From: Paracoccaceae bacterium
GTDB lineage: Bacteria > Pseudomonadota > Alphaproteobacteria > Rhodobacterales > Rhodobacteraceae
Direction of reading: 5' to 3'
Length of the DNA: 64,000 nt
Assembly (NCBI GenBank): GCA_007692585.1
Contig: REBU01000105.1
Coordinates: forward strand, 197 to 64,196
The translations under genes were made by a program, and so were the position numbers. The notes under the pieces were generated by a model. It ran no database searches and had not been told where the DNA came from. It saw only the letters and a list, made by a program, of their open reading frames with translations. Positions 9,092 to 38,942 of this stretch are shown here, piece after piece (the first letter of the stretch is position 1; each line of letters starts with the position of its first letter).

Positions 9092-11821
9092 TCATCGCGG
9101 TCGGGCCGCCGCACGCACTGTGTTCAGAAGCGTCTCGGCGAGGCGCTCGGAAATATCGAGCCTGCCTGCGAGATCTGCGACTGACAGGTTCGCGACATCG
9201 GCCGGATTGGTCAGCCCGGTGGCACGCAACCGGGCACGGTTGGCGCTCGACAGATCCGAGAGCGCATCCGTCGACACAATGGCGAAATCTTCGGGCCGGA
9301 ACACCTGACGCCTGATCGCGGGCACCTGCATGCGCGCGACCTCGCTGCCGCTTCGCGCTTCCAGCTCCAGCACCGTGCTCGGCACATCCGCAAACAGGAA
9401 GCCTCCGTCGCTGTTGGTCTGGGTCTGGCCGATCCGGTTCCCTGCGACCCCGCGCAGCGCGACCTCGACATCGAAGACAGGGGCCCCGCTATCGGCCAGA
9501 ACCACCCGACCGATGAGCCCGCCCGAAGGCTGCCGGACCACATCGACAAACCGCAGCCGTCGGCCCTGGTCCGGCGCGATGATCCAGAACCAGCTGACCA
9601 GCGTGCCACCGCGCCGCGTGTCCCCGGTGGGCATGATCTGCCGTCCGGGCCGTTCCAGCGCATCGGCATCCAGCCAGCGCACGGACCCGTCTTCCGCCGC
9701 CGAGCGGGCGCGGATATTGTCCCCGCGCACTGTCAGCTCGAACAGCGCGGGCTGCTCGAAATTCCGGAAATAGTCGATCAGAGGGCCTGGCAGGTTCGGG
9801 TTCGGCTGCCATATGATGACATTCCCCGCCACTGACAGCCGTGCGGACAACCTGATTTCAAAGGTGAAAAGGTCACCTCCATCGGGGCGCATGGCGGTGA
9901 TGAAGGCCACGGGACGCTCGCCCGCATCCCCGACCGAGGCCGGATCGACCTCGTCATCGCAGATGATTTCCAGCCCCTCCATGATCATGTCGAGGCTGAG
10001 ACGTCCATCATGCTCAAAGGGCTGGCCCGAGCGCCAGATCATGCGCTCGATCCGAAAGCCCGGTTCTTCGCCACCGCCACGCGCGCAGAGCAGCTCGAGG
10101 GCTTCCTGCACATTGCGCGCCTGCGCAAGCGGAGGGCAGTTCGCAGGGTCAAAGGCCGTGGTGGCGGCCATGGCATGCGACGCCGAGTAGACCAACGGAA
10201 CATGACGGGCTGTCCCGCCATGATCCAGAAGCCGCGCTTCGACCCGCTGTGCGGACCCCGGTGCCCCCAGCCGCCAGACTGTGCTGGCCACGCCCTCGGC
10301 ATCCGTGACCGCGTCGACCGGCGCGCTGGCACCGTTCAAGCGCCCGCCGCCCGACACGAGCGAAAAGCGCACTGTGGCGCCTGCCACGGGTCGGCCGCCA
10401 AGGCTGACAGCCGCGCGCAGCGGCTCAGGCAGCGGCGCACCTGCCGCGGGGGTGGTCAGGTCCGGCATCGCCTCCTGACCATCGCCCCCGGCGTAATCGA
10501 TCTGCATCAGCCCGGTCAGCGGCGGAAACAGCGTGCGGCAATCCTCGGTTGCGGTGATCGCGGTGCCGTCAAACTGCATCAGCCCCAGCCGCGCATAGGC
10601 ATGGACGATCCCATGCGGGCTTTGCGGGACAGGCGTGCCCGCGCTGTTGACGGGCCATTCGACCGCGCCGGTATTGGTGCGCGCCGGGATCATCCAGTAA
10701 TCGCCCGTGCGGTAAGTGCCCGCCTGAAAGCGGACCTGCACGCCTTGCTCCAGATCGACCCAGGCATTGGCTGGAGCCGCGAACAGGCCGGTCCCCTCCC
10801 AGCGGCGGATCCGGGGCTGGCTGGGGAAAGCCGCGAAGGCTGTGGGACCGTCCGCAGTGGCCGGGTCGAAGACCAGCACATCCGCCCGCACCTCCAGCAG
10901 ACGCACCATCGTGCCCGGCGCGCCGCGCAGCTCGCGCGAGGCGTCGATCAATTCGACCCAGTCGCCATTGGAAAAGCCATGTGGCCGATCTGGCCCGGCC
11001 GATGAAATCGTCGCCTCGTCCCCATTCTGGCCCAGCCAGGCACTGACCACGGCACCATTCTCGCGCGACCATTTGAACCGGGCAGCGGCCCGTGTGCCGG
11101 GGGTGTGAACCTCGACGCGGTAGAGCTGGTTTTCCAGGCTGCGATAGCCTGCCGTCTCGGGCACGACACAGGGACCGGAAGGGGCTGCGCCCGGCTCGGC
11201 ACGGGCCGAAAGCTGGCCGTCAGGGGACCGCGTGGCGGCGGCATAGGCGTCGAACTCGTCCATGCAGGTGACGGTCGCGCCGGGGGCTGCCACCCGCACT
11301 GCACGCACCTGCCAGATCCGTCTTGTGCGCGTGGCCGTATCCGGGCCGCCCAGCGCCACTTCGCGGATCGAGGGATCTTCCAATGCCGTGATGCTGCGGT
11401 CCCAGACATCGAGATAGGCCAGATATACCCCCGGCGTCGTGAGCGCGGGCGGATCGGGGAAATCTTCCTGCCCGAGATATGAGGTGATCGCGGGGTTCTG
11501 CGCCAGGAGCCCAGATGCGTAATACGTCCCGCCTGTGATCAGGAAATCCCCTGCTGCCAGCGTCGGCACCGGCTGATTGGCAGGGCGCGCAGCCTCCCGC
11601 GGGTCCAGATCAGCCACGGCCCCGGCAATTCCGAAACCGGCGCTGTCCAGCGGGCCGCCTGCAGGTCCGATCATGTCGGTCAGGGTCAGTTTGTCGTGAT
11701 GGGCAAGAATGTCGATCTGTTCGTTCCAGTCGGCATCAAGCTGCATCCGGCCCTGCTGCAATCGCACGGAGCTGAACCTTTTGGCGGCGTCAAAGGTAGA
11801 GCGGGACAGGTCGGTTTTCAT
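9092..11821 (-). CDS. DUF6519-like large protein; last gene of the cluster and a putative fibre or receptor-binding component
   Basis: Start at MKTDLSRSTFDAAKRFSSVRLQQGRMQLDADWNEQ, the DUF6519 N-terminal signature, with a GGGGA RBS upstream. Near the C-terminus, TNSDGGFLFADVP is a carboxypeptidase-regulatory-like beta-sandwich motif. The last ~60 aa are helical and look like a helix-hairpin-helix. Confidence 0.6.
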   Translation of the reverse strand: MKTDLSRSTFDAAKRFSSVRLQQGRMQLDADWNEQIDILAHHDKLTLTDMIGPAGGPLDSAGFGIAGAVADLDPREAARPANQPVPTLAAGDFLITGGTYYASGLLAQNPAITSYLGQEDFPDPPALTTPGVYLAYLDVWDRSITALEDPSIREVALGGPDTATRTRRIWQVRAVRVAAPGATVTCMDEFDAYAAATRSPDGQLSARAEPGAAPSGPCVVPETAGYRSLENQLYRVEVHTPGTRAAARFKWSRENGAVVSAWLGQNGDEATISSAGPDRPHGFSNGDWVELIDASRELRGAPGTMVRLLEVRADVLVFDPATADGPTAFAAFPSQPRIRRWEGTGLFAAPANAWVDLEQGVQVRFQAGTYRTGDYWMIPARTNTGAVEWPVNSAGTPVPQSPHGIVHAYARLGLMQFDGTAITATEDCRTLFPPLTGLMQIDYAGGDGQEAMPDLTTPAAGAPLPEPLRAAVSLGGRPVAGATVRFSLVSGGGRLNGASAPVDAVTDAEGVASTVWRLGAPGSAQRVEARLLDHGGTARHVPLVYSASHAMAATTAFDPANCPPLAQARNVQEALELLCARGGGEEPGFRIERMIWRSGQPFEHDGRLSLDMIMEGLEIICDDEVDPASVGDAGERPVAFITAMRPDGGDLFTFEIRLSARLSVAGNVIIWQPNPNLPGPLIDYFRNFEQPALFELTVRGDNIRARSAAEDGSVRWLDADALERPGRQIMPTGDTRRGGTLVSWFWIIAPDQGRRLRFVDVVRQPSGGLIGRVVLADSGAPVFDVEVALRGVAGNRIGQTQTNSDGGFLFADVPSTVLELEARSGSEVARMQVPAIRRQVFRPEDFAIVSTDALSDLSSANRARLRATGLTNPADVANLSVADLAGRLDISERLAETLLNTVRAAARPR

Positions 11822-11869
11822 GGCAATCCCCAATTCGGTTCGAAGCGGCGCAGGCATGCGCCCGCAGGA

Positions 11870-14071
11870 TCAGGTTTCAAAGACAAGTCCGTATTCCTGC
11901 CCATAAGGCAGATATTCAGGCACCAGATTACGCAGGTTCGACAGCCGCGCGGGCTGCGCAAGGAAGCGGAACGCGCCCATTTCGGACCCGTCTTCGCCCC
12001 CCCCCGCGATCTCGACTTCAGTGCTGCGCGCCAGTTGCGCAAAGCCCGGCTCGCCCCAGACCGCCGAGGTGAAGGCCGGGCGCAACCGGGCGATGATGGC
12101 TGCGTGGCCGGCAACAGGGACCCCGCTCAGCGCAAGCTGCGGCTGGCATCGAAACGGGCGCGGCGTGACCGAGCCGGGCGCGATCCAGCTATAGCGCACG
12201 CAACCGGTCTGCAGTCTCCGGGCGCGGGTGATCCCTGTCAGAAGTGCACCGCTGGCATCGAGCGTCAGGCAGGTGAGCGCGCCCAGAACCGTGCTGTCGC
12301 AAATCTCGACCGGAGTTTGTGCCGCATTGATCCTGCCCGCCACGCTGTCACACAAACGCAGCGCCGCAATCGGCGCGGCCACTGCGATATCGCCGACAAT
12401 ACTGCGACGCAGCGACAGCACCAGGCCGGCATTGCCTGCACCGACCTGCAGCACGCCTGCACCCGGCATCACGGTGCAATGGGTCAGATCAAGCTGCCCC
12501 AGCGCCCCTTGCGCGATTGTCACCCCGCCTTGCACCACCACCCCGTCCAGCAGCAATGTTCCCGGCGTGTCGCTTGTGGCAGGCGCGGTTCCGCGCAGCT
12601 CCAGATCGCCCACGATCACCGGGCGCAGCCGATCCGCGTCGATCTGGCCAGGGCGCCGGATCAGCACCCCCTCGGGCGCGTCCGGATCTTGCATGGCAGG
12701 CCAGTCCGCCGCAGTCAGGATCAGGCGCGAGCCCTCCGGCACCGTGATGGCATCGGCGCCAGTCAGCGCACCTACATGCCGCGCGCTATCCATGATCGCA
12801 ATCATGCCGACGGTGCCCGCAGGCTGGCCCCGCCACGCCGCAAGCGCCTGCGCCAGCGTCGGATAGATATTCTCTGACGCCGAGGCAGGCCGCGCCGAAA
12901 CGCCTGCGGCCCAGGTCACAGGGCGCAGCGCCAACTGCGCCTCCATCGCGGCGCGTCTGCTATAGCTCAGCGCGCCGATATCGCCTGCGAACCCTTCAGA
13001 ATAGGTCAGCCGCACCACCGCGCCCGCCACCGACGGGGCCAGCACCACACGGCCCAGCTCCGGATCGACCGCGACCGAGAGAGGCATCTGCACGCGCGCA
13101 GTGCTGCCATCGGGCTGAACCACGTCATAGCCGCGCGTATCCGCAGGCGCGGTCCAGTCCGACAGGTCGCAGACCGCGATCCGGTCTGGTGAAAGGTCTG
13201 CCCCGTCGAGCTCGACGCGGAAGGCAGGTTCCATCCGCGCCCCCGCGCGCTCGTCAAACCACAGCCGGACCGGTGCGCGGCCTGCCGCCAGCGCCTGCCG
13301 CCGGGCTTCCAGCTCGTCATGCAACGCCCGTCGGCGCAGCGGCGCGGGCACCGAACGTGGGCCGGTCCGGTCCTCTGTGCCCGCATCCGTGGCGGCGGGA
13401 TTGAACAGCGCCGCGTCGATACCAGCGGGACTGACCCGGTAGCGGCCCGCCACCGGCTCTGGGGTCAGATCGGCGGCCGTGATGCGGTAAGCCTGCAGCC
13501 GCCACAGAAATACCGCGATGTTGGGGATATTGAACCGGCCCCGCCCCAGCGCGACCGAACGGACATCAACCATGTGCATCGCTTGGCCAAAAGGCCCCTG
13601 TGGCGGATCGAAAGCCGCGCTGTCGCGCAGGTCAGGTGTCCGGACGGCATCGGGGCGCAAATGGTTCATGTGCTGGGTGCCCGCCAGCTGCAGGAACATC
13701 TCGCGCGCGAGCGCCCGCCAGCCTGTCGCATCCTGCGCCAATTGTTCGATCACGCGCGCAGTGCCCTTGCCACGGCGGAACGCGAGGGTGTTGGCCACCA
13801 AGCTGCGGCGCGAAAAGCCTGCGGAGCCGATCTCCTGCAACCCGCGCACGCCCAGCAGATCGCCGATATAGGGCACCACCCATTCGTCGCAGGTCTCGAT
13901 GAACCAGTCGTCCAGAAGGCCCAGAATGTCGTCCTCGACGCGCCCCCCCTGATCAGCCAGCACGCCAAGCAACGCGCGCAGGGGCGCGCCGCGCTCGGCG
14001 TCGCGCTGGCGGTGGATATTGGGCAACAGCTCCAGCAAGGCGGCGCGGCGTAGCGCGTCAGATGTGCTCAT
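11870..14071 (-). CDS. baseplate wedge / phage tail protein (P2 gpI-like, TIGR02242-type; Afp12-like)
   Basis: Start at MSTSDALRRAALLELLPNIHRQRD...LLDDWFIETCDEWVVPYIGDLLG, the tail-protein domain signature. The long C-terminal part has beta-helix-like repeats. Its ATG overlaps the upstream stop. Confidence 0.7.
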   Translation of the reverse strand: MSTSDALRRAALLELLPNIHRQRDAERGAPLRALLGVLADQGGRVEDDILGLLDDWFIETCDEWVVPYIGDLLGVRGLQEIGSAGFSRRSLVANTLAFRRGKGTARVIEQLAQDATGWRALAREMFLQLAGTQHMNHLRPDAVRTPDLRDSAAFDPPQGPFGQAMHMVDVRSVALGRGRFNIPNIAVFLWRLQAYRITAADLTPEPVAGRYRVSPAGIDAALFNPAATDAGTEDRTGPRSVPAPLRRRALHDELEARRQALAAGRAPVRLWFDERAGARMEPAFRVELDGADLSPDRIAVCDLSDWTAPADTRGYDVVQPDGSTARVQMPLSVAVDPELGRVVLAPSVAGAVVRLTYSEGFAGDIGALSYSRRAAMEAQLALRPVTWAAGVSARPASASENIYPTLAQALAAWRGQPAGTVGMIAIMDSARHVGALTGADAITVPEGSRLILTAADWPAMQDPDAPEGVLIRRPGQIDADRLRPVIVGDLELRGTAPATSDTPGTLLLDGVVVQGGVTIAQGALGQLDLTHCTVMPGAGVLQVGAGNAGLVLSLRRSIVGDIAVAAPIAALRLCDSVAGRINAAQTPVEICDSTVLGALTCLTLDASGALLTGITRARRLQTGCVRYSWIAPGSVTPRPFRCQPQLALSGVPVAGHAAIIARLRPAFTSAVWGEPGFAQLARSTEVEIAGGGEDGSEMGAFRFLAQPARLSNLRNLVPEYLPYGQEYGLVFET

Positions 14072-16845
14072 GGCTGTATCTCCTCGATCACAAGCCGCGC
14101 AGGGTCGAGCAGCATCCATTCGGCAGGCAGGATGCCACCGGCGCTTGCAGACCACCGGGCGCGCTCAGCCAGCAGCCGTGGGCGCGCGGCGGGCGGCTCT
14201 CCGTCCAGCGCGGCCAGCACGACCGCCATGACACCGGCGCATCCCTGCGCATGCGCGATCACGCCAGAGGCCTCGATCCCCTGCCCCAATCCCTGACCCT
14301 GCGGCCCGTAGCGGGCCAGCATCCGCGCGCGCAATGCCCCCAACACTTGCGCCGGGATGCGCCCCGGATCGACAGCAACCTGCAACCGCAAGCCGAAACG
14401 GCGCTCGGTATGGGGGCTGATCAGCACCCGGCGTTCGGGGTGGCGTGCGCCGTCAATCGCGGCGGCCAGGTTGGAAATCACAATGCCCTCTGGCGCCAGC
14501 CGAGAGCCATCCGCCCCGACCACAGTCAGGTGGACCACCTGTCGCTCGCCGCTCCACAAAAGGGTCGCTTGGGCCTTGCCGACCCCTGCAAAGGCGCGGG
14601 CAAAATCCTCGAAATCGCGCACCGACACGACGCGGTCCAGGGTCAGCACTGTCAGCGGTGCATTGGCACGCGCGGCCTCCAGCGGTTCGGGGTCTTGTGC
14701 GCCTGTGGCAGGCAAGGGGTTGGTCACGGCCTGCAAGCCCAGCGGCTGGCTCATCGCCAGAGCCAGCTGCCCGGCCCGGACCTGTCCGGCAAGCCCGATC
14801 CCGATGCGATAGCTCGCAGTGACATTGCCCTGCCCGGTCGGCAGCCGCGCGCCGAAGCGGCCATCTCCGAACTGCACCTGCACCTTGTTGTCCACCCCAA
14901 CCTGCGTCATGTAGACCCGCGCATCGCCGGGCTGGCCGTAAAGTGTCGCGACCTCGCGCCAGAGCAGCCCGTCAACCCGGACCCGCAACGTGCTCTGCCC
15001 GCCTGTGGCCGTGGCGGCGGGCACATGGGTCAGCGGCTTCTGGCTCAGCGCAAAGCTCTGCATCGCGCGGCTGGCATCGCCCGAGCCCAGCGTTTCGGAA
15101 AATGTGTCGCCGGTCAGCGCCGAGGTCAGCTCGACGCGCGTGTCGCCATGTGTGGCCAGTGCCACATTGCCATTCAGCGCCACCGACGCGCGCCAATAGA
15201 CCCTCGCAAGCGGATCCTCGAACACAAGGACCGCATGACCCGAACTTCGGTCGATCCGGCGGATGACCACGCGCTCGCGGGTATAAAGCGCGTCATCAGG
15301 CGGGACGAAAGCGGCTTCGGGCGGCTCCGGGGGCAACGGTATCAGATCGCCGGGGCCAGTTGCGGCAACAGTGCCCGGAACGCCATCCGCGCGCCTGACG
15401 GGCCAGAGGCGCGCACCTGCAGTGCCCTCGTCTGTCGCTGGCCCCTCAAGCTTCAGGATTTCGCCCTCGCTCAGCCGAACAGGCACCCCGCCGCCCTGCG
15501 GCACGAACATCAACGGCGTTCCGGGCTCGGTCACGGTCGTGGTGCCGCGCCGGTATCTGCGCCCGCGTGGTGCCACTTGCAGATGCGTCTGCACCCGTCC
15601 CCGCAGGATCAGGGTCTGGCCTGCAAACAGATCGGGATGCAGACCGTCAAGCGCCAGCATCTGTCCCTGCACCGGCTCCGTGAGCGGGGCCTGCGCAAGG
15701 GCAAGCGCACGCGACTGCGCGTAGACGACCGTGGTGCGCAGGCCGAACTGCACCAGGGTCTCGTCCGTATCAAAGCGCAGCCGCATGACCTTGGCGGTCA
15801 GCGAGAAATCGGCGCGGCTGCGGGTCAGAGCCTCTTCGACACGGTACAATTCACGCGTCGGCCCCTGTTCGAGAATGACCCAGGAGCCGGGCAGCACATC
15901 TTCTGCAACCTGATCGAGATCCACCTCGCGCCGCGCGGTCGTGGTGATTGAGAAATTCGCCCATTGACGCCCGCCCGGTGTGCCGAAAACGCGCTGGATC
16001 GGTTCGGGCATGGCGCGGAAATCGGGCGCATTATGACCAAACAGATTGGCCCGCATCCCGAAAGCGTAGACCTGCGGCATGGCAGCCGGATCGACCCGTC
16101 CAACACTATGGCCCAGATCATCGGTCCATGTGACCCGGGTCAGGCCGCTGGCCGCATCCGCCTGCACGCTCTGAAGCACGCGGGCATCCCAGCGCTCGGA
16201 GCCGGGGTTCGCGCGCCGTTCCGCACCCAGCAGCACGATCAGATCACCCGGGGCAAGGCCGGTCGCCGTGCCCTCCAGCCAGAGTGCGGTCGTCGCACGC
16301 CCGATGACCTGCGGCACGGCCATGCGCGGGCGCAGCGCATTCCATTCGGGCCGGGCATGGATCGTCTCGACCGTCTCGAACATCTGAGGGCTCTCATCCG
16401 GGCCGGGGATCGACTGCACTTTCAGCCCCGCGGCCATGGGATAGACCTCGCCCCCGCCGGGGCTCGCCTGAATGGTAAACGCCAGCCATGTCGAGGCCGC
16501 CACACCGGGGTTCAGCTCATACCCGATCTGCCGGGCCAGTTCGAGGATCGAGCGGCGCTCGGTCGCAGTGCGCAACCACCCCTCGTTGGCGATACGCTCC
16601 TGATAGAAGCTCAGAATGTCCAGCACGCCGGCCCAGGCGTCCATCAGGGCAATAGCGGGGTCAGACACGCTCCGTGTCCGCAAATTCTTCAACGCAGGAT
16701 CAGCCGAAACCGCCGCAATCATCTGTGCCATGAATTGCGGCTGGGTTCCGATGCGATAGGCCACTTCGGTCTGGCCAGGCCGGTTGCGCGGGCGCACAGC
16801 CTTGGTGCCATGGGCGCAACCCGGATCATCGCGGTGCAGGCTCAT
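14068..16845 (-). CDS. putative baseplate assembly protein (gp6/Baseplate_J-like, TIGR02243-type; Afp11-like)
   Basis: 925 aa. AIALMDAWAGVLDILSFYQERIANEGWLRTATERRSILELARQIGYEL is the typical N-terminal module of this family. Confidence 0.7.
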   Translation of the reverse strand: MSLHRDDPGCAHGTKAVRPRNRPGQTEVAYRIGTQPQFMAQMIAAVSADPALKNLRTRSVSDPAIALMDAWAGVLDILSFYQERIANEGWLRTATERRSILELARQIGYELNPGVAASTWLAFTIQASPGGGEVYPMAAGLKVQSIPGPDESPQMFETVETIHARPEWNALRPRMAVPQVIGRATTALWLEGTATGLAPGDLIVLLGAERRANPGSERWDARVLQSVQADAASGLTRVTWTDDLGHSVGRVDPAAMPQVYAFGMRANLFGHNAPDFRAMPEPIQRVFGTPGGRQWANFSITTTARREVDLDQVAEDVLPGSWVILEQGPTRELYRVEEALTRSRADFSLTAKVMRLRFDTDETLVQFGLRTTVVYAQSRALALAQAPLTEPVQGQMLALDGLHPDLFAGQTLILRGRVQTHLQVAPRGRRYRRGTTTVTEPGTPLMFVPQGGGVPVRLSEGEILKLEGPATDEGTAGARLWPVRRADGVPGTVAATGPGDLIPLPPEPPEAAFVPPDDALYTRERVVIRRIDRSSGHAVLVFEDPLARVYWRASVALNGNVALATHGDTRVELTSALTGDTFSETLGSGDASRAMQSFALSQKPLTHVPAATATGGQSTLRVRVDGLLWREVATLYGQPGDARVYMTQVGVDNKVQVQFGDGRFGARLPTGQGNVTASYRIGIGLAGQVRAGQLALAMSQPLGLQAVTNPLPATGAQDPEPLEAARANAPLTVLTLDRVVSVRDFEDFARAFAGVGKAQATLLWSGERQVVHLTVVGADGSRLAPEGIVISNLAAAIDGARHPERRVLISPHTERRFGLRLQVAVDPGRIPAQVLGALRARMLARYGPQGQGLGQGIEASGVIAHAQGCAGVMAVVLAALDGEPPAARPRLLAERARWSASAGGILPAEWMLLDPARLVIEEIQP

Positions 16846-19271: not shown

Positions 19272-19624
19272 GCGGGCACCTCCACGACCAGCGTCTCGGC
19301 TGCGCCATCCGCAGCGCGGTAGCGCACCAGCACTTCCAGCAGCCCATCACCCGCCTGAACCACGACCTCGACGATCTGCGCCCTTGTCCCGAGGCTCTGT
19401 TGCAGTGCCGCATGTGCCATCGCTTCCAGCGCAGTGGCCAGCGCATCGCCACTGGGCGAAAAGACCAGCGCCCCGACCCCGGCGCCGAATTGCGGGCGCA
19501 TCACCCGCTCGCCGGGCGCGGTCAGCAGGATCTGCTCGATCAGATTGCGCAGATGGCGTCTGGGATCGGCGCGCGCGGTCTGGCCGGCATCATCAAAATC
19601 GAAAGGGAAGGTCATGTTTGTCAT
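19268..19624 (-). CDS. GPW/gp25-family baseplate wedge protein (Afp9-like)
   Basis: Start at MTNMTFPFDF (ATG 19622-19624, overlapping the PAAR-like stop). Carries the gp25 signature RRHLRNLIEQILLTAPGERVMRPQFGAGVGALVF. Confidence 0.85.
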   Translation of the reverse strand: MTNMTFPFDFDDAGQTARADPRRHLRNLIEQILLTAPGERVMRPQFGAGVGALVFSPSGDALATALEAMAHAALQQSLGTRAQIVEVVVQAGDGLLEVLVRYRAADGAAETLVVEVPA

Positions 19625-19956
19625 GTCGCGATCACCCTTGTCTGATTGACAGTGACACTCGCGGGGCCTTGCGGCGCCCGGGTGGCGGCCAGCGCCAGAC
19701 TGGGCGAGGTCTGCAGCAAAACCGGTTGCCCGTTCACCAGCACACGCGCCGCAGGCATCAGCCACTGCACCGTGACACAGGGGCTGGGCGTAGGCCCGGG
19801 CAACTGAAAGGCGCAGCCCGCCACCACAGAGCTGTCCGCCAGCGTCGCGGCAGGCATCCCGCTGACCAGCACACGCGTATTGGACGAAATCGTGGTGACC
19901 TGGCCCCCATGCGGGCACATGGCGGTGGCTCCGACGTGGTAGATGGGTCCGGGCAT
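19621..19956 (-). CDS. PAAR-like spike-tip protein (Afp10-like)
   Basis: 111 aa. MPGPIYHVGATAMCPHGGQV...VSGMPAATLAD...VNGQPVLL. Identified by small size, position just after the spike gene and a PAAR/DUF4280-like repeat pattern. Confidence 0.6.
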   Translation of the reverse strand: MPGPIYHVGATAMCPHGGQVTTISSNTRVLVSGMPAATLADSSVVAGCAFQLPGPTPSPCVTVQWLMPAARVLVNGQPVLLQTSPSLALAATRAPQGPASVTVNQTRVIAT

Positions 19957-31520: not shown

Positions 31521-31747
31521 CGCTCCAGTGCCTCGATCAGGGCGCGCGCGGCCGCCGCGCCAATACGCTCAGGCCCATGCGCAGATGCAGCGGTCAGGAT
31601 TGTGCGCTCGGGCAGGACCGGCGGTCCCGACAGGCCCGCGCGCGCAAGTTCGGTGCGAAATCCGTCCAGAACGCGCTGGCTGTCACCGGCTGAAAACCCG
31701 TTGAGCGCGACGGCGCCGATCTCGAATTGCAGGGCCGCGCGGGTCAT
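31517..31747 (-). CDS. small hypothetical protein (76 aa), translationally coupled on both sides
   Basis: MTRAALQFEIGAVALNGFSAGDSQRVLDGFRTELARAGL... Its ATG (31745-31747) overlaps the ATPase stop, and its stop overlaps the giant gene's ATG. I recognise no motif. Confidence 0.45.
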   Translation of the reverse strand: MTRAALQFEIGAVALNGFSAGDSQRVLDGFRTELARAGLSGPPVLPERTILTAASAHGPERIGAAAARALIEALER

Positions 31748-33612
31748 GTCCAGCCCCCGGTCTCGGCCTCGGTCAAGGTCTTGTCGAGTTTGGCGCATTC
31801 CGCCTCCGCCGCGTGGGCGAGATCGGCCATGCGGATCGGACGGTCTGCCTCTGCGGCCAGAAAAGCCGCCGTCAGCGCAATGTTGCGGATCGCCCCGCCG
31901 GCGACAGAGAGCTTCGCCAGCAACGCAGGATCCAGCCCCTCGGTGCGCGCGCCTGCCGGGAAAGCACGCTGCCAGATGCGCAACCGTTCGGCATATCCGG
32001 GAAAGGGAAACTCCACGACAAACCGCAGCCTGCGCGCGAAAGCCTTGTCCAGCGCCGCGCGGAAATTCGTCGTCAGGATGGCCAGACCGCGATAGGTTTC
32101 CAGCCGCTGAAGCAGATAGGCGACCTCCATATTGGCGTAGCGGTCGTGACTGTCACGCACTTCGGATCGCTTCCCGAATAGCGCATCCGCTTCGTCAAAA
32201 AGCAGGATCGCGCCCCCGTCTTCCGCTGCATCGAACACGCCCGCGAGGTTCTTCTCCGTCTCACCGATATATTTGCTGACCACCTGGCTCAGGTCGATGC
32301 GGAACAGATCGAGGTCCAGATCGCGGGCCAGCACTTCCGCCGCCATGGTCTTGCCCGCGCCCGAGGGTCCGGCAAACAGCACACTGACCCCCAAGCCGCG
32401 GCCTGCAGAGCTGGTAAAACCCATCTGTCCATAGACCCGCTGGCGCTGGCGCACCTGCGCGCAGATCGCGCGCAGGGTGCGGGTTTCGCGCTCGGGCAGG
32501 ATCAGATCATCCCATCCCGCACCGGACACGATCTCTTGCGCAAGATCGCGCAGGCGCGGGCGCGATACGGCGCGCGCGGCGTTCCACAAAGTCTGGCGCG
32601 CGGCCTCGGGCGCCGCATCGAGCAGCGGCGCGGCGGCCTGGGCGGCTTCGGTGACATCGGAATAGCCCAGCGTGAAATGCCGCGTCACCGCGTCCAGCGC
32701 CCCGTTGAGCCGTGCTGCGCGCTGGCCCAGCTGCGCGCGCCACAGCAAGTCCTGTTCGGCCGGGGCGATCGGGGCAAGCCGCACCCGAAGGCGGGGCCGC
32801 GCGCAGGCACTGGCCGCGCCGCATCCGTGCACCATCAGCATGCCCGGCCCGGAGGCCAGCTCAGCCAACGCAGCGTGTGGCATCGCGCCCTCAATCAGCA
32901 AGGCCCGTCCGGCAAGCACCACCTCGCGCGTCCACAGCGTTGCAAAGCCGCGCCGCTCGACCGCGCTTGCGCCCAGATCAGGACCATGCAGCGCCCAGAC
33001 AAAACGCTGGCCCACCGCCGCCGCGGCGGCGGCAAGGGCACGCGCATCGCGCGGATCATCGCTGTCGATCTCAACAAGTGGCGGGGTTGCAGACGCCGTT
33101 GCGCGCCAGATCTGCAGCGCGTGCTGAGCCAAGGCTTCCGGCAGCGCTTCGGGCCGGGGCAGCGCCGTGAGCATCGGGGCCAGCCGGGTGTCCATCGGCG
33201 CCAGCCCCACGAGATGATGCAGGATGCGCTCATCCAGTGTGATCTCGGCCCGTGCGAGCGGCCGTGCGTCGGACAGACGGATCAATTCCCACCGCCGCAA
33301 CGGCCCTTGCGGCGAGAGCGCACTCCAATGCGCGCCCTCCAGCCGGGCGAGCGGCAACGCGAAAGACAGCACGCTGCGCTCTTCGGGGTCCAGCTGCCTA
33401 AGCGCCGGGGCCAGCGCCTCATCCACCTCGATGCCGGCGGCCAGCACCAGAATATCCTGCTCGAAAGGGCTCAGGCCGAAGGCATGGACGATCTCGCGCA
33501 GGCGGGGATGGTCGGGCAAGGGCGCATCCCCCCCCTCCAGCCTGGCCCGCGCAGCAGCGCAGAGCCCGCGAAGCGCCGCGAAACCGTCCCGCTCTGTGGC
33601 CATGAGCGTCAT
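31744..33612 (-). CDS. AAA+ ATPase (Afp15-like CIS assembly ATPase)
   Basis: The C-terminal AAA module has Walker A GPSGAGKT and Walker B ILLFDEADALFGKRS, followed by ANMEVAYLLQRLETYRGLAILTTN. A ~350-aa non-ATPase N-terminal region precedes it, as in Afp15/Pvc15-type proteins. Confidence 0.85.
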   Translation of the reverse strand: MTLMATERDGFAALRGLCAAARARLEGGDAPLPDHPRLREIVHAFGLSPFEQDILVLAAGIEVDEALAPALRQLDPEERSVLSFALPLARLEGAHWSALSPQGPLRRWELIRLSDARPLARAEITLDERILHHLVGLAPMDTRLAPMLTALPRPEALPEALAQHALQIWRATASATPPLVEIDSDDPRDARALAAAAAAVGQRFVWALHGPDLGASAVERRGFATLWTREVVLAGRALLIEGAMPHAALAELASGPGMLMVHGCGAASACARPRLRVRLAPIAPAEQDLLWRAQLGQRAARLNGALDAVTRHFTLGYSDVTEAAQAAAPLLDAAPEAARQTLWNAARAVSRPRLRDLAQEIVSGAGWDDLILPERETRTLRAICAQVRQRQRVYGQMGFTSSAGRGLGVSVLFAGPSGAGKTMAAEVLARDLDLDLFRIDLSQVVSKYIGETEKNLAGVFDAAEDGGAILLFDEADALFGKRSEVRDSHDRYANMEVAYLLQRLETYRGLAILTTNFRAALDKAFARRLRFVVEFPFPGYAERLRIWQRAFPAGARTEGLDPALLAKLSVAGGAIRNIALTAAFLAAEADRPIRMADLAHAAEAECAKLDKTLTEAETGGWT

Positions 33613-34904
33613 ATCGTCACCTGCGGTCCATTGAAGCTGCCATCCGCGGCCTGTGTCAGCCCCGTTTCCGCCGCATCGACCTGCACCCGGATCAGATAAG
33701 CCCCGGCGACGACCGCGCTGATCGCCACAGCAACCGATGCAGCCTCGGCAGTCGTGGCGGGCAAGCCGTTGCCGGGCGGCGCGCGAAAGCTGTAGCTGAG
33801 CCCTGAGCCGTCCACCGCATTGAGCGCCAGCGCCACCGCCTGCGCACGCCCGACCGCAGGGGCAAAACTCAAGGTCACGGTCCCGTCCCGCAGCGTAACC
33901 CCGTCGCGCACCTGCGAGGCGCTGGCGACAAAAGCGGCGGTCACGCGGGGCGCGATCACCAGAACGGCGGGGGTCGACACCGCGATCTCGCGCAGCTCTG
34001 GCGGCATGCCGAGAGGCGCGCGATGCGCGACTGTCACCGCCAACGCCCCGGCGCGCAGTCCGGTCGGCAGCGGGTCGGGAAGATTGAAAACCAGCCGGTC
34101 AGGCTGGCGCTGGGTCACCTGCGCGGTCAGATCCTCCGGGCCCAGACGCAGGATCATGTCAGCCGCCGCCAAATCCGCGCCCAACACCTCGACCGTGCTG
34201 CCTGGCAATACCGGCCCCGGCGCGGCACCCTGCGCCCGGACCGCGTCGATCCGTGGCCGGCCCTGCCCGGTCGCCCCGACACTGACACCCTGCACCGGCA
34301 ACGCCTTTCGGGTCGTCAGATCACTGTCGATCAGTACAGTCGTGACGCGATAGGCAAGCGTTGGCCGGTAGCGTGCCTGCAGCGCGCTCCAGAGTTTCGA
34401 GATTTCCTCGTTCGACATCGCCTCAGGGGTGATGCGCAGCGTCTCGAACTGATCGGCAAGCCCGGTTGCATCCAGCCCGCTGGGCCAGCCCGCAGGGGGT
34501 GCGGCCGGGGACAGTGCCCGCGCAATCATGGCCCGCGTTGGCACCGGGATCTCGTGAAACAGCTGCGCGGTCCGGCCCAGCAGGATCTCGGCCAGAAGCG
34601 GGGCCGCGCCATAGACCGTGATCAGCAGATGCAGATCCAGCGCCAGCGGTGGGGCCGAAACCCTCTGGCCGCGCGCGTCGCGGGTCGGCGCGTCCATATT
34701 CGCCCAGCCAAGGTTCCGGCTGACCTGATGCAGGAAGACATTGACCTGCGTGGGTTCGGCTGTCGACAGATCGACCCGGTCCGGTGGCAGGCTGCTGACC
34801 GTCACCGGCCCCACCGCAGAGGCCACAGGGGCTGCGGCGAACGCATTGGCGAGCATATCGCGCAGCAGCGCCGTGACACCTGCGATGGCCAGTGCGGTGC
34901 TCAT
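33609..34904 (-). CDS. DUF4255 (Pvc16_N) tail terminator/cap protein (Afp16-like) with long C-terminal extension
   Basis: IAGVTALLRDMLANAF...VTVSSLPPDRV...VNVFLHQVSRNLGWAN is the DUF4255 signature. About 235 additional C-terminal residues are beta-rich and Ig-like in pattern. Confidence 0.75.
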   Translation of the reverse strand: MSTALAIAGVTALLRDMLANAFAAAPVASAVGPVTVSSLPPDRVDLSTAEPTQVNVFLHQVSRNLGWANMDAPTRDARGQRVSAPPLALDLHLLITVYGAAPLLAEILLGRTAQLFHEIPVPTRAMIARALSPAAPPAGWPSGLDATGLADQFETLRITPEAMSNEEISKLWSALQARYRPTLAYRVTTVLIDSDLTTRKALPVQGVSVGATGQGRPRIDAVRAQGAAPGPVLPGSTVEVLGADLAAADMILRLGPEDLTAQVTQRQPDRLVFNLPDPLPTGLRAGALAVTVAHRAPLGMPPELREIAVSTPAVLVIAPRVTAAFVASASQVRDGVTLRDGTVTLSFAPAVGRAQAVALALNAVDGSGLSYSFRAPPGNGLPATTAEAASVAVAISAVVAGAYLIRVQVDAAETGLTQAADGSFNGPQVTI

Positions 34905-35782
34905 CGTGACGGGCCCTTGCGCGGGTCGAGATACGCGTCCAGCGACAGGGTCGGCCCGCGCCGCACCGGACCGCGCGGGCGCGCGGGGGACGGAGCTGGC
35001 GCGGGGGCGTTTATCTCGATCCGGTCAATGCGGATCGTCACCGGGGGCGGGGGTGGCGCGGCCCGCTCGGTCGGGCGTGCCAGATCCCGCAGCGCAGCGG
35101 TTGGCCCCCTCAAGGCAAATGGTGCGGCTGACGAAGGCACAGGTGCAGCCGGTGCGCGCGGCGCAGCCGCCGCGGCACTGCGAAACGGGGACGCGGCGAC
35201 TTGCGGTGGGGACGCGGCGACACCGGGTCTGGACACAAGCACGGCAGGATCTGTTGCGATCCGCAGATGGGATGACGGGGCGGCCGGGGGATCGTCGCGT
35301 CTCGGGCTCGGGGTGGGCGGTGCCACCCGACGCGGGACTGTCGCAGACGGCTGGCCAGTGGCAAGGTCGAGATCTGCGCGGTCGTGGGGCGCCGGCGCGA
35401 CTGAAGCCGGGCGCGCTTCCTCTGACGCCTCGCGCAGCGCCGGTGGCATGGCGGCGCTGGTGGCCAAAACGCCGTTCTCAGCGGCGCGTTCCGGGAGCAG
35501 TGGTCGGGGCTCTGGCGGTGCGGCAGAGTTCTCGCTTTCGCGCAACCGCTCTGGCAGGGGCTGCGGCATCGACACGGACAGCGCGCCGAGCGAGGGCTCT
35601 TCAGGGGGCCGTGGCGGCACCGCGCGCATGACGCGATCCTTTGGTGCAAGCTGATCGGGTGCAAGCTCTGGCTCTGCATCCGCGACTGTCATCTCTGGGA
35701 TAAAGCCCGGCGCGATCTGCGCTGCAACGGGGGTCTCCATACCGTTGCAGCGATCAAGCAGACGGTCGAACAACCCGCTCAT
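34901..35782 (-). CDS. Pro/Ala-rich protein, putative tail tape measure (Afp14 functional analogue)
   Basis: 293 aa, low complexity and visibly Pro/Ala/Arg-rich. N-terminus MSGLFDRLLDR; C-terminal block PPPPPVTIRIDRIEINA...TLSLDAYLDPRK. Sits between the tube-side genes and the cap. Start and stop both overlap neighbours. Confidence 0.45.
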   Translation of the reverse strand: MSGLFDRLLDRCNGMETPVAAQIAPGFIPEMTVADAEPELAPDQLAPKDRVMRAVPPRPPEEPSLGALSVSMPQPLPERLRESENSAAPPEPRPLLPERAAENGVLATSAAMPPALREASEEARPASVAPAPHDRADLDLATGQPSATVPRRVAPPTPSPRRDDPPAAPSSHLRIATDPAVLVSRPGVAASPPQVAASPFRSAAAAAPRAPAAPVPSSAAPFALRGPTAALRDLARPTERAAPPPPPVTIRIDRIEINAPAPAPSPARPRGPVRRGPTLSLDAYLDPRKGPSR

Positions 35783-36459
35783 GGCGCCACCATCGAGAGA
35801 TAAAGCGCCCGGCGCTCTGGCGGCACTGCAAGGATTTCGGCCTCGGTCCAGTGATAGGCGCTGGCAAGCGTGTGGATCTCCGTAATCAACCCGCGCGCAT
35901 TGGCGCGCAGTTCCTCCCAGAGCACGGGGACGATGTCAAAAACCCGAGACCATGCTGTCCCGCAGGCACTACAGGCGAGATCGAAAGTCACATGGGCCAA
36001 TGGATCTGCCGCCTCCAGCCAGTCCTCGACTGTCGTCAAGTCATCGGCTGCGACCGCGCGCCCGGCCACTGCCCGGGCGAGCTGCGCACGCGCCTCGCGC
36101 CGCGGCAGGTCGGCCACAGCGACCAGATCACGCGCGCTGAGCGGGCGGGCGTCGCATGGCCCATCCGACAACACCAACGGCACCACGTCCCCATTCTGCA
36201 GCGCCAGAAGGTCCGGCAGCGGGGCCACAAGCTCCAACTCCGTCCTGCAGGAAGGGCAGGTATCCACACAGGGCACGTCTGGCCCCGACATCGCGATCCG
36301 CAGCCGCATCAACGCCGCATCGCGCGCGCCCAGCGGCATGTCGGCGGCGCTTTCGCCAAGACCCAGCGCGCGGCACAGCGTCAACGCGCGGTCGGGTTGC
36401 CTCAGCTGGGGAGCAGCCGCGATCTGGAGCAACACAGCGCTGTCAGGCATTTGCGGCAT
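35779..36459 (-). CDS. conserved-looking hypothetical protein with split CxxC...CxxC (putative zinc ribbon)
   Basis: 226 aa. CPSC at residues 68-71 and CSAC at 163-166. C-terminal HWTEAEILAVPPERRALYLSMV. RBS GAGGGA lies upstream. Occupies the slot between the tube and putative tape-measure genes. Confidence 0.5.
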   Translation of the reverse strand: MPQMPDSAVLLQIAAAPQLRQPDRALTLCRALGLGESAADMPLGARDAALMRLRIAMSGPDVPCVDTCPSCRTELELVAPLPDLLALQNGDVVPLVLSDGPCDARPLSARDLVAVADLPRREARAQLARAVAGRAVAADDLTTVEDWLEAADPLAHVTFDLACSACGTAWSRVFDIVPVLWEELRANARGLITEIHTLASAYHWTEAEILAVPPERRALYLSMVAP

Positions 36460-36554: not shown

Positions 36555-37079
36555 TCAGGCAGGTTGGGTGAAAGACGTCTCGGTCGGTTCCTTGACGTCG
36601 TAGTCACGATCCCAGCCCTCGTTCTCAAGCTTGATCATCTGGATCGCCACAGCATTCGCATTGGCGTCAAGATCCGGAAGCGCCTGAAATTCGCTGACCC
36701 AGCAGCGGAAAATCTTGTAGGCAATGGCAAGCTGACCGGCCTCGTTATACAATTCGAGGATCACGTCGCGCCTGAAATCCGCAAGGCTGGTTTCCGCCCC
36801 GAGCCCTGCGCCGTAATTCCAGACCTTGTTGGCCCATTGCTCGAAATCAGGGTCATGGGTGACGCCGCGCTCGACACTGATGGCCTCGAACTCAGTGCGG
36901 CCGGGCGATTTGCGGCTGGTCGAAGGATCTCCGCCCTCGCGGTGTTTGACCACTTCCGTTGTGCGCTTGAGCATGCTGACTTTGCTGGCACCGAGCACAT
37001 AGCGCCCTTCCCATTTCAGGCGGAACTTGAAATTCTTGTAAGGGTCGAACCGGCTGGTATTGACGCTGAACTGTGCCAT
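36555..37079 (-). CDS. contractile tail tube protein (T4 gp19-like / TIGR02241-type; Afp1/5-like)
   Basis: KNFKFRLKWEGRYVLGASKVSMLKRTTEVVKHREGGDPSTSRKSPGRTEFEAISVERGV...AIQMIKLENEGW is the canonical eCIS/phage tube pattern. Confidence 0.9.
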   Translation of the reverse strand: MAQFSVNTSRFDPYKNFKFRLKWEGRYVLGASKVSMLKRTTEVVKHREGGDPSTSRKSPGRTEFEAISVERGVTHDPDFEQWANKVWNYGAGLGAETSLADFRRDVILELYNEAGQLAIAYKIFRCWVSEFQALPDLDANANAVAIQMIKLENEGWDRDYDVKEPTETSFTQPA

Positions 37080-37091
37080 GGGATCGCCTCC

Positions 37092-38942
37092 TTACCCGAC
37101 GCTCTCGCCAGCCATCTGCTGGAGCTGGATGATCACGAACTCCGCAGGCCGCAGCGGTGCGAACCCCACACTGATCCGCACCAGACCCTGACCAATATCC
37201 GCTTGCGTCGTGGTTTCACTGTCACATTTCACGAAAAACGCTTCCGAGGCAGAGGCCCCCTGGAACGCACCCTGCCGGAACAGCCCGTTCATGTAAGAGC
37301 CCACATTCAGCCGGATCTGTGCCCATAGCGGTTCGTCATTGGGCTCAAACACCACCCATTGCAGCCCGCGATACAGGCTTTCCTCGATATTTAGCGCCAT
37401 GCGGCGGACCGGGATGTATTTCCACTCGCTGGCGAAACGGTCATCGCCTTGCAAGGTGCGCGCGCCCCAGACCACCCGACCGGCAGGTGGCCGCGTACGC
37501 AGGCAGTTTATCCCCAGCGGATTCAACTGCCCGTTCTCCGCATCGGTCAGCGGCACCGTCAGCCCCGGCACGCCGCGCAGCGTCGCATCAAGCCCAGCCG
37601 GCGCTTTCCAGACCCCACGCGCGGCGTCCGTGCGCGCCATGATCCCCGCCACGGCACCGCAGGGGGCAAAAGCCTCGATCTGGTTCTCGCGCAAGGGGTT
37701 GGGCTGGCGCAGGCGCGGGAAAAACAGCGCGGCGTTGCGACTGACCGTGCCGATCCCCGCCGCCATTCCGCTGATAGCCTGCGCGACGCTGCCCCAGCTT
37801 GACGGCGGGTCCACGATCAGCAGCGCGCGGCGCTGTTCACAATAGCTCGCCGCCACAGTCCAGACCCCGCTGGTCGTATCAGTCTGGGGCGCGAAGGGCG
37901 GGATGCACAGGAGATTGAAGATATCCGCATCTTCAAGCGCATAGATCCCGGTCTTGTTGGCTTGCGACCCGGTGTAATCCCCGGCGCTCAGCTCGACCCC
38001 GTCAGATGCCTGCGTCGTCACCCCCGTCGATAACGTATCCGAGAACGGATCCGCCCCCACCGACACTGCGCCGCTATCGGGCGGCCGCGCGCCGGGCAAT
38101 GGCCCGAAATTGCGCACCAGCATCGAGCCGTTCGCCAGCACAAGGTCCACCCTGCGCGGATGGTTCACATCAACCGAGACATTGCGAAAGACCTCGACCG
38201 CGCCCGTCGATGCGTCGCGGATGGTCAGGTTGAACAAATCAACCGCGCCCCCGGCCACATTGTGATCGACCCGCGCCCGCAGCGCATTGCCCCAGGTCCC
38301 GCCATTCGCAGCCTCAAGGTTCAGCCCCCCCGCGAGCGCGATGCGCGCCCGTGTGACCGGTGCAGCCGCCTGCGCCACCGCACTGACCGCGCCTGCGACA
38401 GCCGCCGTCGCGGCATCGGCCACATCCTGCGGTGTCGCGGCCCCGGCCACCGCGGCCTGCGCAGCCGCAACCACAGCGCCTGCGGCAGTCGCGGCACTGG
38501 GTCCGGCAGCGGCGGCCGCAGCAAGCGCGGCCTGGGCTGCGTCCGCGACATCCTGCGGCGCTGTCGCAGCGGCCACAGCCCCAGTGGCGGCAGTGACGAT
38601 GGCATCAGCCGCCGTCTGAGCCTCGGCAGTGGCCGAAGCTTCAGCCGCCGCGCGGGCAGTCTCGTCAGCAAAAAAAGGGGCGAACAGGCGCACGACCACA
38701 GCCTGCCCCCCGCCGTTGAGAAAGAAATCCCGGATCGCAAAACTCAAGGTCGAGGCGGCCCACAGACCGCCGAACGAGCGCTCGAAATCCCCGAAACTGT
38801 TGACAATGGTCGGAGTGTTGACTGGCCCGCGCGCCGCGCGTCCCACAAAGGCAGCAACGGCGGTCGGAACGCCGGATATTCCCCTTACGCCACTTGGAAC
38901 TTCTTCTACATACACACCTGGGTAGCTGACGTTTACTGGCAT
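37092..38942 (-). CDS. contractile tail sheath protein (Afp2-4-like) with Ala-rich internal insertion
   Basis: The N-terminal sheath signature is MPVNVSYPGVYVEEVPSGVRGISGVPTAVAAFVGRAARGP...FGDFERSFGG...FFLNGGGQAVVVRL. The C-terminal part IPVRRMALNIEESL...WVVFEPNDEPLWAQIRLNVGSYMNGLFRQGAFQG is typical of sheath C-domains. Confidence 0.93.
   Translation of the reverse strand: MPVNVSYPGVYVEEVPSGVRGISGVPTAVAAFVGRAARGPVNTPTIVNSFGDFERSFGGLWAASTLSFAIRDFFLNGGGQAVVVRLFAPFFADETARAAAEASATAEAQTAADAIVTAATGAVAAATAPQDVADAAQAALAAAAAAGPSAATAAGAVVAAAQAAVAGAATPQDVADAATAAVAGAVSAVAQAAAPVTRARIALAGGLNLEAANGGTWGNALRARVDHNVAGGAVDLFNLTIRDASTGAVEVFRNVSVDVNHPRRVDLVLANGSMLVRNFGPLPGARPPDSGAVSVGADPFSDTLSTGVTTQASDGVELSAGDYTGSQANKTGIYALEDADIFNLLCIPPFAPQTDTTSGVWTVAASYCEQRRALLIVDPPSSWGSVAQAISGMAAGIGTVSRNAALFFPRLRQPNPLRENQIEAFAPCGAVAGIMARTDAARGVWKAPAGLDATLRGVPGLTVPLTDAENGQLNPLGINCLRTRPPAGRVVWGARTLQGDDRFASEWKYIPVRRMALNIEESLYRGLQWVVFEPNDEPLWAQIRLNVGSYMNGLFRQGAFQGASASEAFFVKCDSETTTQADIGQGLVRISVGFAPLRPAEFVIIQLQQMAGESVG

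Follow-up and report, generated by a model that had tools for sequence, protein, structure and literature searches.

A contractile injection system operon with a giant DUF4157 protein gene, probably of the Streptomyces davawensis lineage, in a Paracoccaceae genome

Gene content of the operon

The 64,000-nucleotide stretch of contig REBU01000105.1 analysed here (the window) carries on its minus strand, from position 38942 down to 9092, a ~29.9-kb cluster of 19 co-directional open reading frames (ORFs), numbered g01 to g19 in that direction, which is almost certainly a complete contractile injection system (CIS) operon of the Afp/PVC superfamily (Table 1). Exactly 11 of the gene junctions are 4-nt ATGA overlaps and the remaining gaps measure 3-95 bp; this tight packing with ATGA overlaps excludes a chance origin. 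After refinement of the starts of four genes (g07, g09, the gp25-like gene g15 and g18, all listed with their refined coordinates), ATG is the start codon of all 19 genes and TGA the stop codon of 18. The G+C content is ~66% throughout the window, and the cluster is not distinct from its flanks in this respect.

Table 1. Genes of the operon and regulatory-like sites upstream of it, with the evidence for each assignment
Feature	Position	Strand	Length (aa)	Assignment	Evidence
Hairpin	39524-39541			Terminator-like hairpin 3' of ruvB	Consensus match only
Promoter candidate	38976..39004	-		Sigma-70-like promoter candidate	Consensus scan; ~34 bp upstream of sheath start
g01	37092..38942	-	616	Contractile sheath	PF04984 and PF17482
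g02	36555..37079	-	174	Inner tube; single tube gene	PF06841 E 3e-41 (gp19-type); TIGR02241 E 1.4e-38
g03	35779..36459	-	226	Cys-rich protein, CxxxCxxC...CxxC	phrog_150 'baseplate hub' E 0.007
g04	34901..35782	-	293	Pro/Ala-rich protein; candidate tube-length ruler (tape measure)	Position and pattern only
g05	33609..34904	-	431	Tube/sheath terminator cap	Pvc16_N (DUF4255) PF14065, residues 10-205, E 7.7e-44
g06	31744..33612	-	622	AAA+ ATPase, Afp15/Alg15-type; candidate cargo loader	PF00004 E 3e-24; PF22977 E 6e-18
g07	31517..31747	-	76	Small ORF	ATGA overlaps with both the ATPase gene and the giant gene
g08	24108..31520	-	2,470	Giant DUF4157 protein, 263 kDa	HELTH at residue 107
g09	22686..24104	-	472	DUF4157 plus OmpA-like peptidoglycan-binding domain	PF13699 E 5e-18; PF00691 E 1.5e-10
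g10	22032..22682	-	216	Tube initiator	PF19266 CIS_tube E 1.4e-5, 25.3 bits (below cut-off 27)
g11	21650..22018	-	122	Small baseplate protein	phrog_7145 'baseplate wedge subunit' E 1.6e-5
g12	20505..21653	-	382	Baseplate hub, gp27/gpD/Mu gp44-like	AlphaFold2 model and Foldseek
g13	19987..20508	-	173	Spike, gp5/gpV OB-fold and beta-helix	PF04717 Phage_base_V E 1e-20
g14	19621..19956	-	111	PAAR-like spike tip	PAAR_motif E 5.5e-5 and DUF4280 E 5.9e-4, both below cut-offs
g15	19268..19624	-	118	gp25-like wedge	PF04965 E 8e-12; matches gp25-like chain of 9gtp
g16	16842..19271	-	809	First Afp11/gp6-like wedge	TIGR02243 E 9e-75; Baseplate_J
g17	14068..16845	-	925	Second Afp11/gp6-like wedge	TIGR02243 E 5e-62; Baseplate_J
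g18	11870..14071	-	733	Probable Afp12/gp7-like outer wedge	Mainly position
g19	9092..11857	-	921	Tail fibre	DUF6519 (eBAP5) PF20129 E 6e-54

The upstream genes encode the sheath, the tube, the cap and the ATPase. Searched against PDB sequences, the sheath protein g01 matches best the chains of entries 8bky and 9gtp (E 1.6e-71) and then 9ezm (E 1.2e-69), which we take to be the sheath of a membrane-bound haloarchaeal CIS; 8bl4 is also matched, and the PVC and Afp sheaths follow at E ~1e-44. Homologues of g01 occur by the thousand in metagenomes at 60-80% identity, in taxa ranging from Gammaproteobacteria to Acidobacteriota, Cyanobacteria and Methanoperedens. The nearest PDB matches of the tube protein g02 are the tube proteins of tCIS and AlgoCIS. 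The next protein, g03, reaches only E 0.2 with PF12322 (T4_baseplate). For g04, Pfam gave no match and tblastn detected no homologue, and ~40 loci hold positional equivalents of 193-311 aa with a Pro/Ala-rich middle and shared terminal motifs (MSDFLxRL...PR at the N-terminus, IGRxEVRA...LSLDxYL at the C-terminus), a sequence pattern that would fit a ruler or an adaptor. The Pvc16_N match of g05 scores 150 bits against a cut-off of 27, and residues 206-431 of this protein have no Pfam match. The N-terminus of g06 is a winged-helix domain (PF22977), and its putative cargo-loading role is proposed by analogy with Alg15 of AlgoCIS (bioRxiv 10.64898/2026.05.27.728243). The same architecture is found in the orthologues of two related loci, L081 and L082. 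The second of these also holds, at 5026-5721, a positional orthologue of g03 that carries PF12322, the family of the T4 gp51 baseplate-hub assembly protein, which weakly suggests that g03 and its conserved Cys-rich relatives encoded after the tube gene are assembly factors resembling T4 gp51.

The downstream genes encode the baseplate, spike and fibre. Their conservation was counted over the best 80 loci fetched from a scan with the hub alignment, some of which are cut by contig ends: g10 to g17 are each present in 76-80 of the 80 loci (79 for g10, 79 for g11 and 77 for g14), g18 in 62 and g19 in 57, and the upstream gene g03 in 36. No Pfam or NCBIfam family matches the hub protein g12, which was modelled with AlphaFold2 from a 27-homologue alignment at a predicted local distance difference test (pLDDT) score of 78. 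The top Foldseek matches of this model (E 1e-21 to 1e-14) are the spikes, in their N-terminal parts, of tCIS, AlgoCIS, the Streptomyces coelicolor CIS and PVC, together with Mu gp44. Because the fold of g12 matches the N-terminal parts of spikes and g12, g13 and g14, joined into one query, align with residues 314-578 of tCIS All3320, g12 (N-terminal half) and g13 (C-terminal half) are, on the modelled fold, a split VgrG/Cis8. The first large wedge protein, g16, matches the Baseplate J chain of entry 9gtp, and weak matches in the N-terminal part of g18 (Phage_Mu_Gp48 E 0.012; Tail_P2_I E 0.024) fit an Afp12/gp7-like role. The DUF6519 domain of g19 is catalogued as eBAP5, a baseplate-attachment domain of the tail fibres of extracellular contractile injection systems (eCISs) (PMC12923769), and is followed by Ig-like and CarboxypepD_reg (E 4e-6) beta-sandwiches. 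The C-terminus of g19 (9095-9300), beyond CarboxypepD_reg, shows a weak helix-hairpin-helix match (HHH_5, E 0.05), which is unusual for a receptor-binding tip.

An initial annotation made from the window's sequence had described a complete Afp/PVC-like CIS embedded among housekeeping genes, as opposed to a prophage tail, a type VI secretion system (T6SS) or an R-type tailocin, and gene content, hidden Markov model (HMM) searches and flanks agree with this call. The 19 ORFs, their span and the 11 overlaps were recounted and are right as first given, and the head, packaging, lysis and T6SS membrane-complex genes that it listed as missing were found neither in the operon nor in the scanned flanks. 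Its assignments of sheath, tube, cap, ATPase, the DUF4157 pair, spike, gp25, two of the three large wedge proteins and DUF6519 protein are borne out by HMM matches and that of the hub by the model and Foldseek; the Pro/Ala-rich composition of g04 is as described, and the tube initiator and PAAR-like tip have matches of the proposed kind that lie below the cut-offs. The LysM identity proposed for g11 is not confirmed: no LysM match appeared in Pfam, and the protein instead matches a baseplate wedge family.

A widespread lineage and its characterised relatives

The order of its genes makes it quite likely that the locus belongs to the cross-phylum lineage of the 'Tme-harbouring' CIS of Streptomyces davawensis. 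Nagakubo 2024 (PMC11126660) characterised the S. davawensis system and defined a cross-phylum group 'harbouring tme-like genes', recognized by conserved synteny and by the place of its largest ORF, which carries DUF4157 at the N-terminus and lies just before the baseplate genes. This group spans Proteobacteria, Chloroflexota and Actinobacteria and includes a plasmid-borne copy, and the supplement places Paracoccus aminovorans, Bradyrhizobium, Koribacter, Lysobacter and Chloroflexus in the tme clade (PMC11126660). By the published description, the gene order of the S. davawensis locus (BN159_7569-7588) corresponds one-to-one with that of the window. Both have a single tube gene, a giant ORF with an N-terminal DUF4157 before the baseplate genes, two Afp11 genes, a PAAR-like tip, gp25 and one or more fibres, as well as an extra ORF after the tube initiator and another after the VgrG-like hub. 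The giant gene of the window, g08, is likewise the largest ORF of its cluster, and only g09 separates it from the tube initiator gene. The two systems differ in that the window has one fibre gene and S. davawensis two, and in that the host of the window is diderm, unlike S. davawensis. The giant proteins also differ: Tme (2,247 aa) is described as ~70% disordered with several transmembrane (TM) helices and a C-terminal EndA-like nuclease (PMC11126660), whereas g08, by crude TM and disorder tests set beside the description of Tme only, is apparently folded and conserved throughout and has no TM-like segment or nuclease. The identification of g08 as a Tme of the S. davawensis kind was set aside, since its nuclease and TM features were not found in g08, and the protein is set apart from Tme by description.

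Relatives of the system are numerous. In a scan of one genome per GTDB species, at least 549 species from many phyla carry a member of the hub family, with the baseplate genes in the same order. In those fetched loci whose 10-kb flank is long enough, the genes for sheath, tube, g03, cap and ATPase are found upstream. All 80 loci have a 'cargo bay' that separates the ATPase gene from the tube initiator gene, spans 0.4-8.9 kb and nearly always contains HExxH/DUF4157 ORFs. Such bays often hold two to four separate DUF4157 ORFs (e.g. L026, L051, L053 and L079), and together those of L001-L080 make up an extensive set of uncharacterised effectors. Nearest to the window's cluster is that of L081, on a Logan metagenome contig, which has the same 19-gene order with 80-84% identity in sheath and hub, 60% in the giant protein and different flanks. 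A complete syntenic cluster with a 2,417-aa giant ORF and a g09 homologue (L083) lies on the 1.76-Mb conjugative megaplasmid pSA1 of Novosphingobium resinovorum SA1 (NZ_CP017076.1, 1389289-1430464), in a stretch that is without annotation in the PLSDB record. The differing flanks of L081 and the location of the L083 cluster on a conjugative megaplasmid make horizontal acquisition of the window's cluster probable. The window's RuvB clusters at 90% identity or more with proteins of Roseinatronobacter, Natronohydrobacter and Paracoccaceae metagenome-assembled genomes (MAGs), and the host is therefore a Paracoccaceae alphaproteobacterium.

The locus is thus a further member of a lineage that is known, already catalogued and very widespread, and this lineage shares several of the features first noted in the locus. 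The initial annotation knew of no characterised system with this exact gene set, and the order is matched gene for gene, by description, in the S. davawensis 'Tme-harbouring' group. The single sheath and single tube gene that it pointed out are found in the S. davawensis CIS and its group as well (PMC11126660). The mid-operon position of the candidate cargo genes, contrasted there with the 3' position in Afp/PVC, is where the cargo bay lies in all 80 related loci, and the haloarchaeal CIS is laid out alike (PMC11566945). With this locus the lineage, of which only one member has been studied, gains a representative from the Paracoccaceae, which would not surprise a specialist.

The similarities of the sheath to PDB entries point to lineage II of dbeCIS for this sequence. 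Of the systems with solved structures, the S. coelicolor CIS (8bky, 9gtp and 9gtr; subtype IId) provides the best match of the sheath, together with matching gp25 and Baseplate J chains, and its cluster also contains DUF4157 genes; entry 9gtr is titled S. coelicolor CIS, and its code suggests the same deposition series as 8bky and 9gtp. This system has two tube paralogues against the single tube gene of the window, one Afp11 gene against two, and no fibre genes (PMC11126660 supplement), where the window encodes a DUF6519 fibre; the S. coelicolor VgrG is a single protein and that of the window is split. The S. coelicolor system needs the membrane protein CisA (PMC12237407). The T6SS-like CIS of the haloarchaeon Halogeometricum borinquense (clade IIa; PMC11566945) resembles the window in having two structural sub-clusters with a DUF4157 spacer between them, and its DUF4157 proteins are secreted in a sheath-dependent manner (PMC11566945). 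It is bound to the cytoplasmic membrane via the putative anchor Hbor_38620, whereas a crude scan of the window's operon gave no evident TM protein, and it has toxin-immunity pairs, of which none were seen in the window.

Two better-known groups are more distant. AlgoCIS of Algoriphagus machipongonensis (PMC8894135; bioRxiv 10.64898/2026.05.27.728243) likewise has two cargos, of 498 aa and 1,228 aa, and its tube and hub are among the best PDB matches of the window proteins. The cargos, Cgo1 and Cgo2, each consist of an N-terminal region, DUF4157 and a C-terminal domain, and their loading into the tube lumen needs the AAA+ protein Alg15 (bioRxiv 10.64898/2026.05.27.728243). AlgoCIS differs from the window in belonging to another lineage (sheath E 7e-36), in its single-protein VgrG and operon order, and in the much smaller size of its cargos. 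Afp of Serratia entomophila and PVC of Photorhabdus share with the window the sheath, tube, cap (Afp16/Pvc16), ATPase (Afp15/Pvc15), gp25, Afp11, Afp12, fibre and spike. They differ from it in having three sheath and two tube paralogues, a single-protein VgrG and toxins without DUF4157 at the 3' end, and their similarity to the window in the sheath is much lower.

The cargo-like trio and possible modes of action

The genes g07, g08 and g09 fill the cargo bay of the window. The small protein g07 has no family match; a 77-aa ORF in L081 and an 85-aa ORF in L082 hold the same position before the giant gene, and L001 has a tblastn match. For g08, 1.84 billion representative proteins searched exhaustively with HMMER yielded only 109 relatives, and nearly all full-length members of this family measure 2,250-2,770 aa, with conservation that is even along the whole length. 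The eCIS_core (DUF4157) match is weak in g08 itself and present in 11 of 12 family members. Pfam searches of 16 members (g08 and 15 relatives) gave eCIS_core only and no nuclease, and a profile of 12 homologues had no match among PDB sequences. A crude hydropathy scan of g08 found no TM-like segment, with no hydrophobic 19-mer above threshold. When searched with tblastn against PLSDB, g08 gave one fragmentary match, which belongs to the full but divergent homologue of pSA1.

The N-terminal half of g08 has a helix-favouring composition. Residues 1271-2470 were modelled with AlphaFold2 on a 7-sequence alignment (pLDDT 68; predicted template modelling score 0.48), and the model shows two long helices followed, from about residue 1400, by ~1,070 residues of long antiparallel beta strands. 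In the PDB, Foldseek matches this model to LptD and TonB-dependent barrels with E-values down to 1e-6 and template modelling scores <0.1, a likeness that is, for this model, local resemblance only; a Foldseek search against BFVD gave no match.

The partner protein g09 has the DUF4157 motif HEIAH. An alignment of 12 orthologues shows, in order, a variable N-terminus, HExxH, a GIGRxPP linker, OmpA-like motifs, a Pro-rich linker and a C-terminal helical domain, and the OmpA-like motifs YNxNLSAHRA and NRRxG are kept, with conservation across four phyla. The N-terminal region of the window copy is rich in disorder-promoting residues, and no signal peptide is evident in the sequence. A g09 homologue lies directly 3' of the giant gene in every giant-bearing locus compared. 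In the genome scan, each of the eight nearest loci has a giant ORF (2,290-2,490 aa) that is homologous to g08 over its full length at 24-38% identity; their hosts are a Halieaceae MAG, Aquincola, a Burkholderiaceae MAG, a gammaproteobacterial MAG, Bryobacteraceae, Verrucomicrobiae and two Streptomyces (L011 and L029). The Streptomyces pair, like the Paracoccus genome listed in the tme clade, lends the lineage call indirect support. The giant gene and g09 also occur together in L081, in L082 and on pSA1. Among the loci compared, the trio is a distinctive, conserved part of one sub-lineage, which can be defined more sharply by a giant DUF4157 protein (~100 sequence clusters), a peptidoglycan-binding DUF4157 partner and a small upstream ORF. 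Cultured carriers in which the payload could be studied are Aquincola tertiaricarbonis, N. resinovorum SA1 (on its conjugative megaplasmid) and Streptomyces triculaminicus JCM 4242.

The explanation that we favour as a whole, with some confidence, is a CIS of the S. davawensis lineage that is loaded with g08 and g09 and released as particles. All structural parts of a phage-tail-like particle are encoded, as judged by sequence and structure searches; the expression and assembly of such a particle are predictions. By analogy with characterised systems, the particle would assemble in the cytoplasm from the baseplate, followed by tube, sheath and cap, with g04 probably setting the length of the tube. 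The ATPase g06 would unfold g08 and g09 and load them via their N-terminal regions, as Alg15 does with Cgo1 and Cgo2, and contraction of the sheath would then drive spike and cargo through the cell envelope. The OmpA-like domain of g09 and the absence of an evident export signal probably imply delivery into the peptidoglycan compartment, i.e. a bacterial envelope, where the HExxH domains may be active as metallopeptidases and g08 may, with its beta-rich half, engage the envelope. A DUF4157 cargo has been found active in Escherichia coli only when sent to the periplasm (PMC12210884).

It seems reasonably probable, again by analogy, that g08 and g09 are loaded cargo. Both have the layout of the proven AlgoCIS cargos (N-terminal region, DUF4157, C-terminal domain), and DUF4157 proteins co-purify with or pass through related CISs (PMC11566945, PMC11126660). 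Their combined volume, which we estimate at ~380 nm3, corresponds to ~30 nm of a 4-nm lumen. An improbable alternative is that g08 is a true tape measure or internal structural ruler, as argued for Tme, and that g04 is something else. As the largest ORF just upstream of the baseplate genes, g08 occupies the classical tape-measure position (PMC11126660), and the narrow length range and even full-length conservation of its family would suit a ruler. Most members of the lineage, however, have no giant ORF, with cargo bays down to 0.4 kb, and those without it keep the g04 family with its conserved termini and length. Moreover, the modelled C-terminal ~1,070 residues are beta-rich instead of forming the long helix typical of tape measures, and DUF4157 marks proven cargos. 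A somewhat less unlikely proposal, still doubtful, is that the trio forms a dedicated envelope-engaging device and an undescribed class of CIS payload: g08 would be threaded out and would refold in the envelope of the target or the producer, its beta-rich ~1,070 residues forming an elongated sheet or barrel-like conduit, while g09 would hold it on the peptidoglycan. At least four phyla keep the trio, at a tightly conserved size.

The identity of the machine itself leaves little room for other readings. All contractile systems share proteins of the sheath, tube, gp25, Baseplate_J, gp27-like and gp5-like kinds, and on these the cluster could be taken for the tail module of a prophage, for an R-type tailocin or for a T6SS, readings that we reject on gene content and flanks. 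The operon encodes a cap with Pvc16_N, an ATPase of the AAA+ type and DUF4157 proteins, and capsid, portal, terminase, holin and endolysin genes are absent from it and from the scanned flanks, where the upstream neighbour, at 646 bp, is ruvB and the downstream one an aldehyde dehydrogenase gene. No phage sheath covers 80% or more of g01, the best reaching 39% identity over part of its length, and the only tyrosine recombinase in the window is XerC-like, stands with DUF484 and is 9 kb away. Pfam and NCBIfam searches of the 19 proteins and a scan of the flanking ORFs gave no match to TssJLM, TssK, TssA or ClpV, and the sole NCBIfam T6SS matches are VgrG-domain models on g13, far below their cut-offs. 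The direction in which the CIS acts is a closer matter. That free particles are released and bind other bacteria via the DUF6519 fibre is narrowly favoured, at about an even chance. The same machine could instead be directed at the producer or its siblings, as in Streptomyces, a reading that we hold tentatively and consider nearly as likely as release. Particles would then stay inside the cell or bind the producer's envelope via the fibre and fire into its own membrane and periplasm, and g08 and g09 would remodel or breach the envelope, resulting in regulated lysis, DNA release or stress-induced death. For S. davawensis, whose CIS is the only one of the syntenic group to have been characterised, action on the producer's own cell envelope is reported, with a fibre that binds the producer mycelium; the solved sheath chain nearest in sequence is one of the S. 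coelicolor CIS series, described as cytoplasmic; the locus has neither an immunity gene nor a lysis cassette; and a peptidoglycan-binding cargo without a signal peptide would reach the producer's own periplasm only if fired there. On the other hand, a DUF6519 (eBAP5) fibre with distal beta-sandwiches is typical of target-binding eCIS fibres, neither a membrane adaptor of the CisA or haloarchaeal type nor, in the crude scan, a convincing TM protein is evident in the operon, and the producer is diderm, unlike Streptomyces.

Several points weigh against released particles loaded with g08 and g09. We found no precedent in the literature for the loading of a 263-kDa protein, the largest proven cargo found being Cgo2 at 134 kDa, and the even conservation and tight size of g08 look structural or mechanical rather than like those of a swappable toxin. 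No immunity gene is evident among the operon proteins and flanks, and no lysis genes at the locus would explain the release of particles. For an extracellular mode in particular, the nearest sheaths include the S. coelicolor-series chain, from a system described as cytoplasmic, and the near match 9ezm, presumably a membrane-bound haloarchaeal sheath. The literature also cautions against predicting from sequence alone how such a system acts (PMC12998442).

Flanking genes and minor observations

The operon is flanked upstream by ruvB, ruvA, ruvC, prmA and priA and downstream by genes for an aldehyde dehydrogenase, IalB, a HerA-like ATPase, obg and proB. Searches found no tRNA genes in the window and no att-like direct repeats around the cluster. 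The sole tyrosine recombinase gene of the window (Phage_integrase and SAM-like N domain) follows a DUF484 gene with a 4-nt overlap at 47574-49219 on the plus strand. XerC genes are usually arranged in this way, and the gene, at a distance of 9 kb from the CIS, is no island integrase.

About 1.4 kb (7720-9091) separates the aldehyde dehydrogenase gene from the end of the operon, and the only convincing ORF in this interval encodes a 92-aa protein (8592-8870, plus strand) with the lipoprotein signal LIAAGC and a bacterial SH3 domain (PF08239/SH3_3, E 7.5e-7, above cut-off). The gene converges on the operon's 3' end. It was considered as an immunity gene and rejected for now, as none of the 80 related loci has a counterpart, and it is probably a local gene and no immunity factor. 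Two further ORFs, 7911-8564 (plus strand) and 8541-8993 (minus strand), were judged spurious from their composition and lack of any match.

Promoter-like sites numbered two against 0.1 expected in shuffles (a consensus scan, which gives no evidence of function). An Rfam search of the window, including the 646-bp leader, gave no match. This untranslated stretch (38943-39588) lies between ruvB and the sheath gene, and the operon is downstream of ruvCAB on the same strand.

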